Assembly (NCBI GenBank): GCA_944393205.1
Contig: CALXZI010000002.1
Span: forward strand, 500-64,499
DNA length: 64,000 nucleotides
Source of the DNA: an uncultured Alphaproteobacteria bacterium
GTDB taxonomy: Bacteria; Pseudomonadota; Alphaproteobacteria; RF32; CAG-239
Direction: 5' to 3'
Position 1 is the first letter of the stretch. Every line of letters begins with the position of its first letter. Of this stretch, positions 15,605 through 49,186 are shown piece after piece. The notes beneath the pieces are model-generated. The model ran no database searches and was not told where the DNA came from. It was given only the letters and a program-made list of their open reading frames with translations. The translations under genes and the position numbers were made by a program.

Positions 15605-18600
15605 ATGGATGAGCAGAGTTTAAGAGATGTTTTTAAGAATTTTATCCTTCAATCGGAAGAACTTGCAATCGCTGATTATGACGAAAATATGGAGATGGAG
15701 ATTTTAATTAATAATCGTGATAAGCGTAAAATTTTCCAATTGCTTTTGGATAATATGCCGGATTATAGAAGTTCTCAAGGCTATATTCACGACTATGTTC
15801 AGGCCTTGTCCTTTTTCTCCAAAGAGCAGATGAAACAAGTATTGCAAACTGTTTTATCCGGTAGTGTGACAGATACAGAATCTCCTCAACGTTTTGCAAT
15901 CATTATGGAAAGTATAAAGACCGGTAAATTATCTCTTGAAGAAACCCAAGATATTGCTCCGGAAAATTTTAGCCGAACGCTCATAAAAAATTGTTATGAT
16001 AATCAGGATTTGTTTATGAACACCAAAGGGTTTCAGCAAATATACAAAAAGATAGAGCAACTGCAAGCTTATTATAATGAGCGTGTCAGTCACAAACTTT
16101 ATGAAATGTCCCACGAAGTGTATAAAAGTACGCTAGGCGATAAGGAAGATTATTGGGACGCTCATGTCTTTACAAGAACGCTTTTAGAACAACATTCCAC
16201 ATGGCAGAATACGGCGGCTTCTTTGTTAGATGAACTCCTTCAAGAAGGATATTATAAAAAATATTATAACATTGAATTTTATAATGCTACCTTGCGTGAT
16301 TTTTTTCCGGAATTAAAAGAAAAAATAGATACGGTTATCACTAGAGATACTTTGAAAGATATGTTGGAGCGAAACAAACGCGAGTTGTTTATCCGTAAAT
16401 GTTTGCGAAATACCGAGATTGACGGCCAGAAAATTGAGCGGTTTGACAGACGCTTGATTAAAGATATTGCCAATACCGATTTGCAAGACCCCAAAGTCAT
16501 TAGTAAAATGGTTCAGTTGTTTTATAAAGTCAACTCACGTCCGGAAACATACGGTTCAAGTTATAATATTTTTTATCCTAATGAGATAACGGCGCAGTTG
16601 GTAAAATTGGATGATAAGTATGTTCAAGATTGGATGTGGCCGGTTCTATCCGAGGTTCGCAAGGAGATTATAGGCACAAGAACCTGTGATCCCAAAAAAT
16701 TATTTGACGCTTGCAAAGCATGGAAACTAAATCCGAAATTCTGGAAAAAAGAGGCAATAAAAATCGGCAAAATGCCTTTGAAAGCCCGAATGGTTGCCAG
16801 TGCAATTTTGAATAGCATTGATGAAGAAGGACATGAAAATTATTCACAAGATTGGATACGCGACAAAAGTTTACGTGCTGATTTTTGGCAGAAAATGGCC
16901 GAAGCTCAAAACATGGGCTGGGATAATGCCATTGTCAAATACTGTAACGATGATGTAAGCAGTAGGCGTCGTTTTTTAAGCTGTTATCAGTCGGTTTTAT
17001 CCGGAGACGAGAGTAAGCTAATTGCCAGAACATCCACATTAGATGAACTCATAACGCACCAAGATAGTATCAAACATCAAATGCGGCGCTTGGTTTATTC
17101 CACACCGAAAGAAAGAGAATATTTTATCAGCAATTATAATATAAAAAAATGGGATGATTTTAATCTTTCGGCGCAACAACGGTGTACAAACCTGATTATA
17201 TCCTTTTTAGGAAAGGAACAAGGACTTTCCGAAGTTAAGAACTGGCGCTTGGATGAAAAGTACAAAGAGTTGTATGCACAAAATCAGGACTGGATTGTAC
17301 CGGCGAGTTTTATTACAGCCCAAACATTTGGGTGTTATTTTCCAACGTATTTGAAAAAAACATCACCTTATATGGATGTGCATGATGCTGTGTATTGGTT
17401 GCCAAAAGATTTATCGCCTGAAAATCGGGACTCATTCAGGCAGTTTATGCTCAACAACATTATTTATGTAGATGACTCGGGAAAAAGGCATCATCGTCCG
17501 ATACAAGAATTGTCTACCATTGCACGTAACTGGAACAGCTTAAAACCGGAAGAACAAAAACAAAAATATAGCGAAGTGCTGGCCATATGTCGCGCTCATG
17601 TTTACGAAAATCAAGAATTTTCTAATTTTGCGGCCGAGGCAGTGCGTTTTGGCGTCAGTGAAAGCGAATATAAAAATTGTGAAGACATCTATAAGGCAGG
17701 TTTAAATGTTCCGGAACCGTTTGACAGTGCAAAAACATATAAATTCGGCAAATATACGGGACGTTTTTTGCCACGTGATGATGTACGGACAGGGTTTTTC
17801 GGCGAACATACCGATTGCTGCCAACGTTTTGGAGGTGTCGGCCATGCCTGTGCGGAATCAACTGTCAAAGACGATTATTCGCAGTTGTTTGTTATTGAAA
17901 ATGAAAAGGGGAATATTGTCGCTGGTAGTTGGACATGGGAAAATACCGAGGGAAAATATCGCGATGTCTGCTTTGATAATATTGAGGCCATCGGCGAATT
18001 TAAAAGTCATCCTATGGTTAACAAGATATATGAAATGGCGGCTAAAGATTTATGTGAGACGCAAAACGTGCGGAAGGTGACAGCCGGTATAGGTTATCAA
18101 GATGCTGACACTTCGCGTTATGAAGTCACGGAAAGCATTCCTCTGCCATCATTGTACGGCAATCAGTATACGGATGCGCATTCACAAGTGTTAATACGTG
18201 AAAACAAAAATGCCTTGCCGCTGGATAAAAGCAAGGAAAGCGAACGCTATGTTCGCGATGCCTGCTTTTTAGATGAGGAAATAATGGATAAAATTTCCGA
18301 AAAGTGTTTTCCAACCTCGGATGCAAATTTACAAACGCCGAGGCGTATTGAAGGGAAAGTTTTAGTAGATAAAGAAAAAGGCGTTGTCGGGTATTGTTTG
18401 TATGACAGTAAAGAAAAAGAGATTTATGATATGGCGGTTTTACCGCAGTATCGTAAAGATAAAAATAAATCTTCGTTAAAATTATTGGGCGAGGTCATTA
18501 AACATGTGCGCAAAGAAGGCGGCGAATGGTCGGCCGAGTTACGCGATAAAACCACGCTACGTTATATGGAAGCTATGAAAGAACGTGGTTTGGTATCAAT

Positions 18601-18739
18601 GCAAATACAGGATATTGACCACGAAATGAGCGACGGTAGCAAGGTTTATCGGGTTACATTCAGCCCCATCATAAGAAAAGAATCCAAAGAAAAGCAAATA
18701 AACCGCATAACGACCGTCAATAATGATGAACGAGGATAA
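15605..18739 (+). CDS. large orphan protein (1044 aa), candidate secreted effector; possible GNAT-like C-terminal domain
   Basis: Long uninterrupted AT-rich ORF with no signal peptide or TM. Internal motif GEHTDCCQRFGGVGHACAES. C-terminal stretch GYCLYD...IYDMAVLPQYRKDKNKSSLKLLGEVIKHVRKEGG is reminiscent of the acyl-CoA N-acyltransferase fold (weak). Followed by the terminator at 18774-18814. Confidence 0.6.
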   Translation: MDEQSLRDVFKNFILQSEELAIADYDENMEMEILINNRDKRKIFQLLLDNMPDYRSSQGYIHDYVQALSFFSKEQMKQVLQTVLSGSVTDTESPQRFAIIMESIKTGKLSLEETQDIAPENFSRTLIKNCYDNQDLFMNTKGFQQIYKKIEQLQAYYNERVSHKLYEMSHEVYKSTLGDKEDYWDAHVFTRTLLEQHSTWQNTAASLLDELLQEGYYKKYYNIEFYNATLRDFFPELKEKIDTVITRDTLKDMLERNKRELFIRKCLRNTEIDGQKIERFDRRLIKDIANTDLQDPKVISKMVQLFYKVNSRPETYGSSYNIFYPNEITAQLVKLDDKYVQDWMWPVLSEVRKEIIGTRTCDPKKLFDACKAWKLNPKFWKKEAIKIGKMPLKARMVASAILNSIDEEGHENYSQDWIRDKSLRADFWQKMAEAQNMGWDNAIVKYCNDDVSSRRRFLSCYQSVLSGDESKLIARTSTLDELITHQDSIKHQMRRLVYSTPKEREYFISNYNIKKWDDFNLSAQQRCTNLIISFLGKEQGLSEVKNWRLDEKYKELYAQNQDWIVPASFITAQTFGCYFPTYLKKTSPYMDVHDAVYWLPKDLSPENRDSFRQFMLNNIIYVDDSGKRHHRPIQELSTIARNWNSLKPEEQKQKYSEVLAICRAHVYENQEFSNFAAEAVRFGVSESEYKNCEDIYKAGLNVPEPFDSAKTYKFGKYTGRFLPRDDVRTGFFGEHTDCCQRFGGVGHACAESTVKDDYSQLFVIENEKGNIVAGSWTWENTEGKYRDVCFDNIEAIGEFKSHPMVNKIYEMAAKDLCETQNVRKVTAGIGYQDADTSRYEVTESIPLPSLYGNQYTDAHSQVLIRENKNALPLDKSKESERYVRDACFLDEEIMDKISEKCFPTSDANLQTPRRIEGKVLVDKEKGVVGYCLYDSKEKEIYDMAVLPQYRKDKNKSSLKLLGEVIKHVRKEGGEWSAELRDKTTLRYMEAMKERGLVSMQIQDIDHEMSDGSKVYRVTFSPIIRKESKEKQINRITTVNNDERG

Positions 18740-21791: not shown

Positions 21792-22427
21792 TCATCCGCC
21801 GGTTTTATAGTTCCATAAAAACATAAATCTGCATGTGTCTGTACTGTCAGAACAATATGAACATAAATCATGCATTTGTGACAAAGTTAAGTTTTTCAGG
21901 CAGTAAGAAGATGTCCGGGTACAATAATTGTCACCATACACTCTGTTTCCTTGTGCATTGCCGTCTTCGGTACTTTTTCCGAATTGTGTCACCCAAAGCA
22001 TGCTGCTGCGAAGTTTTGCCATTTGGAACAAGTTGAGACAAATATCTGCAGCATTTTTATCAATATAAATTGTAAGTCCGAAATATTGTGGTCTTATGGG
22101 GGTGTCTTCAATATTGTGGTAAATACCGATTTGGTTGTCAAAAATATCATAAATATAACCGGGATGTTCCGGTTTTATCATTTCTTGTGGAATGGCACCG
22201 ATTTTCTGAAACAACTGCACAAGACTGAGAGAGGTAAAGTTTTCCCTATCCAATTCATCATTATAAAGTGTAACATAGTCTAATATGCTGCCGATTTGTT
22301 CGGTCTGCCTATTAAGCTTATATTTCATCATAGCCTTGGAATAGCCGGAAACAGCTCCGACACTTAAAATGCCGATGATAGCTAAAACACCCAGCATCTC
22401 AACCATGGAACGACCTTTTTCACGCAT
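21792..22427 (-). CDS. type IV pilin / pseudopilin-like protein, paralog A (211 aa)
   Basis: N-terminus MREKG|RSMVEMLGVLAIIGILSVGAVSGYSKAMMKYKL: short basic leader, Gly, Glu at +5, hydrophobic helix (class III signal). C-terminal Cys pairs. RBS AGGAG. Confidence 0.7.
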   Translation of the reverse strand: MREKGRSMVEMLGVLAIIGILSVGAVSGYSKAMMKYKLNRQTEQIGSILDYVTLYNDELDRENFTSLSLVQLFQKIGAIPQEMIKPEHPGYIYDIFDNQIGIYHNIEDTPIRPQYFGLTIYIDKNAADICLNLFQMAKLRSSMLWVTQFGKSTEDGNAQGNRVYGDNYCTRTSSYCLKNLTLSQMHDLCSYCSDSTDTCRFMFLWNYKTGG

Positions 22428-22470
22428 TGTTTTCTCCTAAAAAACAGCAAAAGTATCTATTTTCCCGATA

Positions 22471-22520
22471 TTCTAAACCGTTTTTTTTTTTTGCAATTTT
22501 AAAGAGTCTCGTGGGGATAA
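22471..22520 (-). promoter_or_regulatory. conserved 50-bp promoter/operator block upstream of pilin paralog A (identical copy at 49047-49096)
   Basis: 100% identical 50-mer containing a 12-nt homopolymer. In gene sense it ends with ...TTGCAAAAAAAAAAAACGGTT then TAGAAT (candidate -10), 43 nt before the start codon. Confidence 0.6.
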
Positions 22521-22688
22521 ATTTCTACTTATTTTTACTATCATACTGCCGAGGGTACTTTCCTTTTTTTCTATCGTCATGCCTCCGAGGTGTTGAAAAC
22601 ACCGAGGATAAGGCATCTCTTATCCATACTTGCGACAGGTGCTTGCCCTTGAGTGTTTGCGCACTTTTGAGCTCGTGAGTGTTTTATT

Positions 22689-22717
22689 ACAAAAAACCGC
22701 CGTATAAAGCGGCGGTT
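22689..22717 (-). terminator. rho-independent terminator of the 22722-23252 gene
   Basis: On the minus strand: aaccgccg ctttata cggcggtt followed by TTTTTT. Confidence 0.75.
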
Positions 22718-36296: not shown

Positions 36297-38975
36297 CTAC
36301 AAAGCAGCGTTTTCAATAGTTTGTTCCAACATACTGTCAATTAAAAATGATGAAAAAACCAAACCATCTTCAAAATGATAACTATACAGCACATAAAAAG
36401 GTACGCTGGAACGATGGTAACGGCGAAGCATTTTTGCAGCTTCCAAAGAGTTACCGCGGATGGAAAGAGGGATGTATTCAAAGTTATACGCTTTGGCCCA
36501 ACGCTTAATATGATGTTGGTTAAGCACCGTTATATTGTTAAAATGACTTAAAGGACTCCAATCGGCAGTTATCCCGATCAGCACAACTTTTCCTTCTAAA
36601 ATTTTATTTTTTATAACCGTTTCCGATATGTCATGCGTTTCCGGATATTCAGTGGTATAAGAGGTGTTTTTGCCGATTATCCAAACCATCCCAATTGCCA
36701 GCGAGATAAAAACAATGGCTGCGATTTTTGCTGTTATTGCTTTTTTCCGAACCGATAATTTGAGCTGTGATAAAGCCAGTAAAAATGAAAAAGCATAATT
36801 AAAGACAAATCCGGCTAAAGCAACTAAAATCAACACTTTTAAAAAGTTTATAAAAGAAATCTGCAAAAAGAAGATTAATAAAAGCCATAAAATGATACCC
36901 AATACGGCAAATATGCCGATAATTTGTAAAAGCCGACGTATCTTTTCTGAAACGTTTTTTTCCAAATGTAGCTTATATTTTGGCTGCAAGAGTAAAAACA
37001 GAGCGGACATACCGGCTGCGCAAACATTAAAAAACATAAAAACAAATTTTTCCGGCATCGTTAACAAAGCTGTAAAACAATCTCTCAAAAACGGCGTAAA
37101 AGAATACGGCAACAGAACGGTTAATAAAATTCCGCCAATAAAACCCTTAAGTTTAAGATTGGTTTTAAACATAACCGGAAGATATTTCAGAGAAAACAGC
37201 AATCCAATAAACAAAAGTATTACCGCGGAAAGATAATAAAAATTATTATATTGCAATCCCCAAATCAAAAAATCATAACGTTCGCGCGCCCAAATCAAAA
37301 CCGCGGCAATGCTATTACATCCGGCAAATACACCGACAATCATGGTTCTGAAATAAAGGGCCGTATTCTTTATACGATTGGTCGCCGATAACGGAAACAT
37401 CCAAAAAGGGAATGCTATCGGCATCAAGTTAAATAAAAGACCAATTAAAAATCCATACAAAACCACTTTAAAGTCGGATATTTCAACTTGTTCGGTACCG
37501 GGCTTAAAATCGGTTAATATTATTTTCTGACGTAGACTGGTATAAGCATTAAGCCGGACAGTCATTTCAAATTTGCGACCATACAAATCATTTTGATGGT
37601 TTTCAGGCACAACGGTAACATAAATTTTTGACCCTTGCACGGAAATTTTCGGTGCTTCAAAAAGCGTATGTTGTCCATCATCCAAAAATAAAGAAAAATT
37701 GTCAATCGTGCCGGAATATTCAAAAACAAAACGAATTTTATCCAATTTCTTTCCGTCTTCAGCCCGTGTTGTATTGATACTTTTCAGTTGTATTCTGTCA
37801 TTATTTTCCGGCGGCAGATTATAATAATTTTGTTTAACAAAATTCATCACGCTGGAAGAAGCATTTTCTTGAGCTTTATCAATCGTAAGTTCGGGAAGAA
37901 ATTCCATTTGTTGACAATTTAATTCATAATCGCAGCTTTGGAATGTAACTTTTGCCTTTAACTTAATACCCTGATGCGCGTTCTCTGTCCGTAAAATTAT
38001 CGGAAAAGCAGGATCGCCGGCATAAGCGCCGATCATGGATGCATCAGCCACTTTAACAGGAATGGGGTAAAAAACATCATATGATTCAATGTTTTCACGT
38101 TCATATAATTCAATTTTAGGCTTTAACAATCTATCTGACAAATCATTAGCCAAAATAAAACGATGATTTGGAATCTTAACATGCACAGCCGCCAACAAGT
38201 TTGATTTGTCGGCGATTTCCGCCGTATCAGAAATCAACCGAACCGCAAAGCCGTCTTTACTCTGCCATTCACCGACGCCGGCATTGCCGACAAACGGATT
38301 AGGCAAAGAATAACCATAAAAAGGAATTTTAGAAAATTCCAACTTTCCGACCATGGAACGAAATTTATCAAAGGCGGTTTTTTTCTTTTTATTATCCAAT
38401 TTTCGCTGCCGATAAGCTTCCATGGCTTTAATATCACGAGGATTGCTTCCGTAACTTAAAACTTTTTTAAAATCATAAATGACAGCAAATTGCCCTTCTG
38501 GCGCTTCAACATAGTCGTGTTGTCCAGGCAAATCATAATCTTCTTCATTAACAATCAAAGGCGGCTCTTTAGGCGCCAAAAGTTCTTCTTTAATTTCTGT
38601 GAATTTTTTACTGCCGGCACGATAAGCGTTAACGGCTTGTCGGACAAATTTTGTTCGTTCATAAATTTCTTGCTGAGTCAATTCAGGAAAAATTGCGGCG
38701 ATATCTGTGCTGAAATCGGCTTCAATTAGTTTTCCGGGATATTTTTCATCAAAATATTTTCCGATAATAAGCATCCGTCCGATAGGACTGTTTTCACCAT
38801 CTTGTAAAAGTTCACGAAGACGAGCCGCATCCGGTAAATTTGTTTTTCCGCTCACGGCAGGTTGTTCGTACGCAGGTTCTTCATTAAAATCATAAACAAC
38901 TTCAGCGGCAAGCGACGCTGAAATATTGAAACAAAAAAACAAAAACACTATATATTTTAAAAACATGGCGCGCAA
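36297..38975 (-). CDS. DsbD-family-like membrane protein (892 aa) with redox-dead C-terminal thioredoxin-like domain
   Basis: Signal peptide. Periplasmic N-domain with a TFQSCDYELNC motif resembling the DsbD-alpha CxxxxxC region. About 8 TM helices. C-terminal thioredoxin-fold stretch VVLIGITADWSPLSHFNN aligns to the DsbD-gamma ADWCVACK region with SPLS in place of CxxC. Comparison made from memory. Confidence 0.5.
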   Translation of the reverse strand: MRAMFLKYIVFLFFCFNISASLAAEVVYDFNEEPAYEQPAVSGKTNLPDAARLRELLQDGENSPIGRMLIIGKYFDEKYPGKLIEADFSTDIAAIFPELTQQEIYERTKFVRQAVNAYRAGSKKFTEIKEELLAPKEPPLIVNEEDYDLPGQHDYVEAPEGQFAVIYDFKKVLSYGSNPRDIKAMEAYRQRKLDNKKKKTAFDKFRSMVGKLEFSKIPFYGYSLPNPFVGNAGVGEWQSKDGFAVRLISDTAEIADKSNLLAAVHVKIPNHRFILANDLSDRLLKPKIELYERENIESYDVFYPIPVKVADASMIGAYAGDPAFPIILRTENAHQGIKLKAKVTFQSCDYELNCQQMEFLPELTIDKAQENASSSVMNFVKQNYYNLPPENNDRIQLKSINTTRAEDGKKLDKIRFVFEYSGTIDNFSLFLDDGQHTLFEAPKISVQGSKIYVTVVPENHQNDLYGRKFEMTVRLNAYTSLRQKIILTDFKPGTEQVEISDFKVVLYGFLIGLLFNLMPIAFPFWMFPLSATNRIKNTALYFRTMIVGVFAGCNSIAAVLIWARERYDFLIWGLQYNNFYYLSAVILLFIGLLFSLKYLPVMFKTNLKLKGFIGGILLTVLLPYSFTPFLRDCFTALLTMPEKFVFMFFNVCAAGMSALFLLLQPKYKLHLEKNVSEKIRRLLQIIGIFAVLGIILWLLLIFFLQISFINFLKVLILVALAGFVFNYAFSFLLALSQLKLSVRKKAITAKIAAIVFISLAIGMVWIIGKNTSYTTEYPETHDISETVIKNKILEGKVVLIGITADWSPLSHFNNITVLNQHHIKRWAKAYNFEYIPLSIRGNSLEAAKMLRRYHRSSVPFYVLYSYHFEDGLVFSSFLIDSMLEQTIENAAL

Positions 38976-42398: not shown

Positions 42399-42631
42399 AA
42401 CGTTCCTTAAATTAATTTAAGCAGAGTCTGTCCGACTCCGTAGAGTTGCTAGCTGCGTTCCTTTTAATGACTCTTATGACAAATGTCAAGCATTACCATA
42501 AAAATATAAGGTGTTTTTTTCTTTTTTAAAGAGCATAACCGAATCGTTAAGAAAACACTTGCAATGAAAATATTTTGTTTTATGCTGACAGCAGTTTTGT
42601 GTATCAACCCCTGTAAGCAAGGAACACCATA

Positions 42632-48392: not shown

Positions 48393-49004
48393 TTATTTCC
48401 ATGTAACATATAAACGGCATTTTGTGGAATTTTCGGTGCATTGGTGACAAAGCATGTCTATATCATTAAGAGACATGTTATATAAACAATTGTCTCCCTC
48501 ACAATAAGCATCGCCATAAAAATGCCCGAAATCTTCTTTTTGCTCTTCGCCGTCCTCATTGATTGAATATCCATCGGTAAAGATATAATATATTTCCGAA
48601 TGCATTGTTTTGTATACGTTTAAGAGGTTTGCACAGATTTCTTTTTGGCTGCCGCCGATGTCAAACCTGTATCCTATGCCGTAATAGGGTGATTGCCCGT
48701 AAAACCATATCAATGCGCCGAAAATATCGGTTAAATAGGCGCTTCCCTCGCGTTGTAGCTCAATACCGTCCGGTAAAAGATTGAGCTTGCTTAAGAGTTG
48801 GGCATAATATTCATCTCCGGTTTCAGGAAAGTCCGGTCGCAGCTGCATGGCATTGTTCAAAAGAATGGTCATGGCTTCCGCCTGCTTATTGAGCTTATAT
48901 TTAAGCATGGCCTTGGAATAACCGCTGATAGCCCCGACGCTTAAAACCCCGATAATTGCTAAAACACCGAGCATCTCCACCATACTTCTACCACATTCGC
49001 GCAT
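48393..49004 (-). CDS. type IV pilin / pseudopilin-like protein, paralog B (203 aa)
   Basis: N-terminus MRECG|RSMVEMLGVLAIIGVLSVGAISGYSKAMLKYKL is nearly identical to paralog A over the first ~40 residues. C-terminal Cys pairs. Confidence 0.7.
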   Translation of the reverse strand: MRECGRSMVEMLGVLAIIGVLSVGAISGYSKAMLKYKLNKQAEAMTILLNNAMQLRPDFPETGDEYYAQLLSKLNLLPDGIELQREGSAYLTDIFGALIWFYGQSPYYGIGYRFDIGGSQKEICANLLNVYKTMHSEIYYIFTDGYSINEDGEEQKEDFGHFYGDAYCEGDNCLYNMSLNDIDMLCHQCTENSTKCRLYVTWK

Positions 49005-49046
49005 AATTTTCTATCCAAATTGCAAAACAAACATATTTTCTCGTCA

Positions 49047-49096
49047 TTCTAAACCGTTTTTTTTTTTTGCAATTTTAAAGAGTCTCGTGGGGATAA
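49047..49096 (-). promoter_or_regulatory. conserved 50-bp promoter/operator block upstream of pilin paralog B (identical to 22471-22520)
   Basis: Identical 50-mer, 42 nt upstream of the start codon. Candidate -10 TAGAAT conserved in both copies. Confidence 0.6.
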
Positions 49097-49186
49097 CTTA
49101 CAACCGGCAGAAGTTATTGTGCGTATCGCCACATATCCAAAAATGCGAATATAATATTATAGACGCAACAGTAAACAAATCCGGCT

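Follow-up and report, generated by a model that had tools for sequence, protein, structure and literature searches.

Why do two pilin genes whose products are 37% identical share the same upstream DNA, down to an uninterrupted 12-nt homopolymer, and what might that homopolymer be doing there? The genes lie on the minus strand of the stretch of DNA analysed here, 64 kb long and referred to throughout as the window. An earlier note had claimed an identical 50-nt block in front of both. The block is real and one base longer than claimed, an exact 51-nt repeat at 22470-22520 and 49046-49096 (two matches in the window, none in 100 shuffles) that stretches to 71 nt at 92% identity (22458-22528 versus 49034-49104). 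Its spacing from the two start codons is also the same to within a base, at 42 and 41 nt (43 and 42 by the start coordinate of the earlier note). On the plus strand both copies read ATTCTAAACCG, then T12, then GCAATTTTAAAGAGTCTCGTGGGGATAA. The two T12 runs are the longest homopolymers of the window, every other run being 9 nt or shorter, and the 64-kb window holds neither a third copy of the block nor a third pilin gene. The features that concern us are as follows.

21792-22427, minus strand: pilin paralog 1, 211 aa, with a type IV prepilin N-terminus and a predicted type IVb-like fold
22428-22469, minus strand: predicted 5'UTR of pilin 1, with a Shine-Dalgarno sequence (SD), AGGAG, at 22434-22438
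22470-22520, minus strand: putative promoter block, copy 1; in gene sense TTATCCCCACGAGACTCTTTAAAATTGC-A12-CGGTT-TAGAAT, 100% identical to copy 2
22470-22475 (copy 2: 49046-49051), minus strand: -10-like hexamer TAGAAT; TAnAAT in all family members
22481-22492, minus strand: A12 homopolymer of copy 1, the putative promoter spacer (T12 on the plus strand)
22491-22496 (copy 2: 49067-49072), minus strand: TTGCAA, -35-like, 15 bp from the -10
22504-22508 (copy 2: 49080-49084), minus strand: GACTC, a GANTC site, invariant across the family
22509-22520 (copy 2: 49085-49096), minus strand: distal conserved module TTATCCCCACGA, the sharp 5' edge of the cassette
22695-22717, minus strand: terminator-like hairpin of the upstream 176-aa ORF
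48393-49004, minus strand: pilin paralog 2, 203 aa, 37% identical to paralog 1
49046-49096, minus strand: putative promoter block, copy 2
49057-49068, minus strand: A12 homopolymer of copy 2

The hairpin at 22695-22717 keeps read-through away from the pilin 1 promoter. The two loci are 100% identical over the 51 nt of the block, 52% over the 5'UTRs, 77.5% over the first 120 nt of the pilin coding sequences, 41% over the remaining coding sequence, and 33% further upstream of the block. The block is conserved more strongly than the pilin genes behind it.

A block shared by a large pilin family

Both pilins begin with M-R-E-x-G-R-S-M-V-E-M-L-G-V-L-A-I-I-G, and both carry a class III signal peptide (Gly at -1, Glu at +5, a hydrophobic alpha-1 N-terminus; G-RSMVE-MLGVLAIIGVLSVGA), the motif of which is the same in all nine family members that were aligned. 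The Pfam model PF07963 (N_methyl) scores 16.8 bits against pilin 1, under its cut-off of 21.2, and gives no match for pilin 2; the NCBIfam models match neither protein. The AlphaFold pilin model (pLDDT 79.3) consists of an N-terminal helix of 46 residues (9-54) and a beta-sheet, and its top match in the PDB is TcpA (8uhf, E = 6.6e-5), with the ETEC type IVb pilus subunit (9iuf), CofA, and S. Typhi PilS among the further top matches. By their prepilin N-terminus and predicted fold, both genes are type IVb-like pilins. Their family comprises 2372 database proteins at E < 1e-5, none of which has a curated family match, and a literature search with the N-terminal peptide returned no papers. Its members are single pilin genes amid housekeeping loci (neighbours include gyrA, RNase H, rplJL, htpG, and hda), at sites that differ between lineages, and paralogs are many per genome or sample, with at least four in one MAG and ~25 in one metagenome. 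The window itself is housekeeping DNA: no pilus-machinery genes were found in its 64 kb, and no regulator gene is present beside either pilin or anywhere among its annotated ORFs. Neither Pfam nor NCBIfam has a match for two of its large ORFs (15605-18739, 1044 aa, and 36297-38975, 892 aa). A HydF hydrogenase maturase is encoded in housekeeping surroundings at 55621-56865, and its presence indicates an anaerobic lifestyle for this alphaproteobacterium.

Further loci were gathered as contigs that carry a gene for exactly pilin 1, pilin 2, or one of seven other members of the family. An exact 20-mer search of the JGI metagenome collection gave no hits; a protein-guided scan of metagenome contigs was used instead and added 80 loci. 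One locus (L039) was set aside, as the sequence preceding its gene, at the end of the contig, resembles low-quality read-through. The exact 23-mer of the distal half has five matches in three other species-representative uncultured Alphaproteobacteria MAGs, all five directly upstream of pilins of the same family. At one of the loci gathered (L002), which carries the ortholog of pilin 2, the flanking DNA is 90% identical to the window and the block 100%. Of the 83 pilin genes for which 200 nt or more of upstream sequence is available, 70 have a recognisable block; the other 13 are genes whose block is variant or degenerate, together with the most divergent pilins. The earlier note had allowed that the block might turn out to be a widespread repeat unrelated to pilins. 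It is widespread, yet a pilin gene lies no more than 450 nt downstream in 84 of 84 copies (129 loci and the window). The 5' edge of the cassette is sharp (TTAT in the window's clade, ACAACTTAT in a distant clade), and the flanks upstream of it are unrelated, in dozens of contexts. Taken together, these comparisons support the block as a candidate pilin-specific upstream regulatory cassette. The host of the family is a lineage of uncultured, low-GC Alphaproteobacteria.

Metagenome contigs very often end in the block or just upstream of it (L011, L012, L014, L016, L025, L035, L124, and roughly half of L040-L119), in two cases right at the 3' end of the A tract. Because the cassette is present in many copies it interrupts assembly, and pilin copy number in MAGs is therefore underestimated. 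In the MAG BRZ_LA_bin12, a truncated pilin (L001:6828-7064) stops 38 codons past the cleavage motif; it is a pseudogene whose promoter is preserved, with an intact block and A12.

The pilin leaders vary from 6 to ~100 aa across the family. That of pilin 2 is short (MRECGRS, window 48975-49004), and that of its ortholog in BRZ_LA_bin12 (L002:185-330) is 37 aa longer (MRENGRSERLK...LCGRS), a difference that resembles the loss of sequence lying between two GGTAGAAGT (G-R-S) direct repeats. Long leader peptides are encoded by near-perfect hairpin-repeat DNA (ATATTCGGGCTTGACCCGAATAT, CCATCGGGTCAAGCCCGATGG) at L042, L049, L052, L054, L068, L075, L077, L079, L081, L082, and L089, and these repeats resemble in-frame MITE/REP-like insertions.

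Spacing, tract length, and a candidate activator-dependent promoter

In gene sense the block of the window's clade reads TTATCCCC-ACGA-GACTC-TTTAAAA-TTGC-A12-CGGTT-TAGAAT, followed by ~36 nt of UTR, the SD, and the ATG. In the distant clade, whose pilins are ~48% identical to those of the window's clade, it reads ACAACTTAT-N10-GACTC-GTAAATA-TTGC-A10-CGCGAGC-TAAAAT and then the UTR. Invariant throughout are the -10 TAnAAT, TTGC, GACTC 7 nt upstream of TTGC, and the edge motif. Over the family the -10 takes the forms TAGAAT, TATAAT, or TAAAAT, all of which match TAnnnT, and it is from consensus and conservation that TAGAAT is assigned as the putative -10. The earlier note had pointed to a -10-like TAGAAT preceded by the A tract and TTGC(AA), an arrangement now seen to be conserved across the family, and to a shared operator of ~25 bp; the distal ~25 bp are indeed conserved across species, as an operator or activator site would be. 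The dyad or direct-repeat symmetry typical of many regulator sites was not found in the distal module. In one assembly (L010) TTAA replaces TTGC, and if that promoter is functional, TTGC would not be essential.

TTGC stands 17 nt from the -10 in 69 of the 84 copies (16 in ten, 18 in three, 15 in one, and 14 in one), and these 17 nt are built in two ways, as A12 plus 5 nt in the window's clade and as A10 plus 7 nt in the distant clade. No other single observation argues as strongly as this compensation that stabilising selection acts on the spacing, and so on the length of the tract. The host's own promoters are canonical, with TTGAC/T-N16-17-TAnnnT before tRNA-Ser, tRNA-Leu, rpoD, metK, U32, M16, and lepB (for instance, TTGACG-17-TAAATA before tRNA-Ser and TTGACA-17-TAAAAG before rpoD). 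A sigma-70 consensus scan with spacers of 16-18 nt did not report the pilin block, where TTGCAA and TAGAAT are 15 bp apart. Since TTGCAA-N15-TAGAAT is 1-2 bp shorter than the host promoters, the core promoter would appear to be off-register, which suggests either a need for an activator or a dependence on tract length. The conserved distal half, combined with the poor -35 spacing, would fit a bound activator that replaces the proper -35 contact; the short modal spacing would also fit a modal state that is weak or OFF, with slippage by +1 or +2 turning the gene on.

Several other assignments were considered and rejected. For sigma-54 (TGGCAC-N5-TTGCW; GG-N10-GC) a TTGCA is present, but CT stands 12 nt upstream and the nearest CACG is 13 nt away, not 4. 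Consensus elements for sigma-28, ECF/EcfG, RpoH, and the CtrA box did not, on manual inspection, fit the two clades alike. A promoter on the opposite strand would draw on the palindromic TTGCAA, yet its candidate -10 spacing is inconsistent between the clades (19 versus 21 nt). T12 as the intrinsic terminator tail of a plus-strand gene lacks both a preceding GC hairpin and a convergent gene, and a structured RNA finds no counterpart among the Rfam matches in the window, which are two tRNAs only.

Downstream of the -10, the 5'UTR of the distant clade holds a hairpin, CUUCUyAAA...UUUGAGrrG, in which the start of the leader pairs with the Shine-Dalgarno sequence (L017-L035 and many of L040-L119). 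U/C changes in it preserve pairing, and it is not evident in the window's clade. It may add a second, translational layer of control.

How stable is the tract? It is uninterrupted in all 84 copies, between TTGC(AA) and the -10, and ranges from 9 to 13 in the window's clade (clade 1) and from 8 to 11 in the distant clade (clade 2). Copies of the same locus could be compared among 39 independent consensus assemblies of seven loci.

Pilin 1: A12 in seven assemblies, A11 in one (L009)
P0005: A12 in two, A13 in one
P0069: A10 in seven, A9 in two
P0053: A10 in ten, no variant
P0115: A12 in four, A11 in one
P0045: A12 in two, no variant
P0009: A12 in two, no variant

A non-modal length occurs in five of the 39 (L009, L125, L038, L017, and L022), and every one is a change of ±1; in L009 the tract is the sole indel in 3.9 kb, besides three SNPs. 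Between loci the length is likewise steady, with A12 in 11 of 13 distinct loci of the window's clade (at least five species) and A10 in ~22 of 25 distant-clade paralogs of one metagenome, the others being A9 or A8. The ±1 differences in this comparison may be slippage or sequencing or assembly error, and they fall short of a programmed switch. The tract evidently mutates, or is mis-sequenced, more than its surroundings, and what the consensus assemblies signal, although a minority of ON cells would go unseen in them, is a maintained length rather than one that varies freely; stabilising selection on length is a stronger signal than variation.

We think it likely that the block is the shared promoter cassette of a large type IVb-like pilin multigene family, driven by an activator and containing an A spacer of constrained length. 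Judging from the position of the -10, transcription would start ~7 nt past TAnAAT, near 22463-22464 for copy 1. The rigid homopolymer would set a fixed 17 nt between the -10 and the invariant GANTC-N7-TTGC module, with the TTATCCCC/ACTTAT module further upstream. Its spacing being 1-2 bp short, the promoter would be intrinsically weak, and transcription would be driven by a trans-acting activator on the conserved distal half, overlapping the -35 region. The A tract would thus be chiefly a length-constrained spacer held by purifying selection. A 12-nt tract would also be expected to slip by ±1 at detectable frequency, and it is plausible that such slippage shifts the activator/-35 module against the -10, tuning or silencing single pilin genes. 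If the block is such a promoter cassette, GANTC-N7-TTGC-A(n)-N-TAnAAT is a searchable cis-element that marks a whole unannotated pilin family in uncultured Alphaproteobacteria. The block then provides a handle for finding the regulator and for testing pilus variation by promoter slippage in commensal gut bacteria, as well as a system in which to measure how firmly selection holds a hypermutable homopolymer at one length.

The same tract could instead be a true contingency locus, at which slipped-strand mispairing switches every pilin gene independently, a possibility that we take seriously but hold to be doubtful. Equally tentative is its fuller form, in which the 15-bp state seen in the consensus assemblies is OFF or low and A13-A14 is ON, giving a vlp-like combinatorial pilin repertoire. 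The homopolymer does sit exactly between the -35-like element and the -10, at a modal spacing of 15 that is suboptimal for the host, and it has no interruption in any of the 84 copies; ±1 variants occur both between samples and between paralogs, the paralogs are numerous per genome or sample, and the genes encode surface filaments, on which phase variation usually acts. Against this, the modal length is almost fixed (the 11 of 13 clade-1 loci and ~22 of 25 paralogs in one sample noted above), the 17-bp optimum with an intact TTGC is found in no copy, and the deviations are mainly contractions. Two haplotypes of P0115 differ by SNPs and a T6/T7 indel, yet both have A12. The flanking bases of the block are as invariant as the tract, whose purity is therefore nothing out of the ordinary; the window encodes MutL; and ±1 at a 12-nt homopolymer may equally be Illumina or assembly error. 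The phase variation suggested in the earlier note is thus not supported in the form given there: an uninterrupted tract does lie within the putative promoter spacer, but its modal length is conserved, is compensated in the distant clade, and varies only by ±1 in 5 of 39 assemblies, as expected of a spacer that is confined to one length and able to slip. A genuine multi-locus phase-variation system would, on this balance, be somewhat improbable. Still more speculative, and in our estimate unlikely, is a scheme in which gut-type Alphaproteobacteria carry several to dozens of orphan pilin cassettes, each OFF by default at 15 bp, turned ON by +1 or +2 slippage of the A tract, and possibly GANTC-gated. 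If it were true, cells would switch on different pilins, a Mycoplasma-vlp-style combinatorial surface variation in a Gram-negative commensal lineage.

Methylation, mobility, and descent as other accounts of the block

GANTC is the target of CcrM-type methylases. The invariant GACTC might make the block a methylation-sensitive promoter, in which a CcrM-type adenine-methylation site ties pilin transcription to replication or the cell cycle, in the manner of GcrA/CcrM in Caulobacter. The lineage is alphaproteobacterial, GACTC keeps the same position in both clades, and in two variant loci (L005@568, L036-38) it becomes GAATC, the N changed and GA-TC retained, although this variant may stem from a single evolutionary event. 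Within the window GANTC is two-fold rarer than expected (97 sites versus 186±12), but other pentamers of the same composition are likewise depleted; the sites are somewhat denser in intergenic DNA, and four of them form a cluster upstream of rpoD/gltX. CcrM and GcrA genes were not found in the 64-kb window. GcrA-activated promoters are reported to share an extended YGAKTCK motif, which the context of the block, (A/G)GACTC(T/G), does not fit. We regard a methylation-sensitive promoter as rather unlikely. The four GANTC sites that cluster in the 230-nt rpoD-gltX intergenic region, at 42424-42541, include one within the spacer of the rpoD promoter. Another short motif, CTNAG, occurs in the window at five sites (1384, 4873, 22225, 38673, and 58788; 22225 falls within pilin 1) versus 89.5±8 expected from dinucleotide shuffles, a strong avoidance, as a DdeI-type restriction-modification system would lead one to expect.

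Alternatively, the block might be primarily a recombination or mobility site rather than a promoter, the 5' edge at which a recombinase inserts, exchanges, or inverts pilin cassettes. Dozens of unrelated contexts show one and the same sharp 5' boundary, and the cassettes are scattered singly, at different sites in different lineages. The distant-clade edge motif CAACTTATGCA also occurs without a promoter, as one end of an ~85-nt element bounded by inverted repeats, and L010 joins pilin 1 to another upstream context with the breakpoint inside the tract, though L010 may be a chimeric assembly over a 23-nt shared stretch. However, the two copies in the window lie 26 kb apart as direct repeats that enclose essential genes, and recombination from one to the other would be lethal. 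The window yields no inverted partner of the block or edge and no recombinase domain among its annotated ORFs. A 3' boundary motif was also not found: there is no conserved 3' cassette boundary, and the sequences downstream are unrelated to one another, consisting for the most part of ordinary terminators or of the gene that follows. A promoter predicts just what is seen in the conserved -10, in its spacing, and in the unbroken run into the 5'UTR and SD, and we consider a recombination site quite improbable. An invertible promoter or shufflon was rejected, since the window offers no flanking inverted repeats and no nearby recombinase.

At L010:2889-2960, pilin 1 is joined to the neighbourhood of a HemN-like gene and a 447-aa ORF, and the block is a same-length variant, CCCCAAAAGACTCTTAAAAATT-A14; the locus is either a real recombinant or an assembly chimera. 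The promoterless edge motif is found at L041:38, L061:766, and L101:705, where the ~85-nt element is closed by an inverted copy, TATAAGGTTG; in inverted orientation this element precedes many cassettes. Elsewhere in the window, a 47-nt duplication at 98% identity (58619-58665 and 58828-58874, 209 nt apart) consists of the 3' end of tRNA-Ser(GCT) and its terminator, and could be the att-site remnant of an integrated element.

Finally, a functionless, neutral relic of recent duplication or gene conversion, which would be in keeping with the presence of two identical copies in a single genome, is effectively refuted: the neighbouring coding sequence and 5'UTR are far more diverged than the block, a recognisable block persists in a clade whose pilins are <50% identical, and the block is identical in other species despite flanks that are 90% identical. 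Its identity between diverged paralogs, and in species with such flanks, indicates that the block is under purifying selection. Gene conversion among paralogs could add to the identity within a genome; it cannot explain the conservation between species.

Comparison with known pilin and homopolymer promoters

Three groups of surface-protein promoters with homopolymers, and one of pilin promoters, bear on the activator-dependent promoter cassette that we favour. In the fim2 and fim3 promoters of Bordetella pertussis, a C-stretch lies between the site of the activator BvgA and the -10, and the spacing from upstream site to -10 decides activity. As in the pilin block, a homopolymer occupies the promoter spacer of a fimbrial subunit gene, several paralogous genes share the architecture, and an activator site (a putative one in our case) takes the place of the -35 region or overlaps it. 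The tract here is poly-A rather than poly-C, and fim tract lengths are far less uniform between loci and strains.

The vlp lipoproteins of Mycoplasma hyorhinis have a poly-A between the -35 and -10 of each promoter. Here too a surface-protein multigene family combines divergent coding bodies with a conserved promoter/5' region and an uninterrupted poly-A spacer. However, vlp tracts are ~17 long and visibly variable between ON and OFF clones, whereas the pilin tract has a fixed mode, compensated across clades, and its host is a Gram-negative alphaproteobacterium with MutL.

Promoter homopolymers in Neisseria meningitidis include the poly-G of porA and the poly-C of opc. In the poly-A of the nspA promoter of the same species, 5A versus 6A alters expression (PMC6389960). 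In such promoters a change of a single base adjusts how strongly a surface protein is expressed, more in the manner of a rheostat than of a strict switch; unlike the pilin family, these are single genes of a cultured pathogen with a measured effect, and the pilin tract, read from sequence, is twice as long.

Type IVb pilin promoters are served by AraC-family activators, as in tcpA/ToxT, bfpA/PerA, and cofA/Rns. Their cores are weak and need an activator just upstream of or overlapping the -35. The pilins of the window belong to the same fold class by predicted structure. They differ in being orphan singletons, not the first genes of pilus operons, and no ToxT/Rns-like gene or toxbox-like repeat was identified in the window. 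In architecture the block is of a kind with the Bordetella fim and Mycoplasma vlp promoters, and it also resembles the Neisseria homopolymer promoters. We class it as a conserved pilin promoter that is probably activator-dependent, with a homopolymeric spacer of constrained length.
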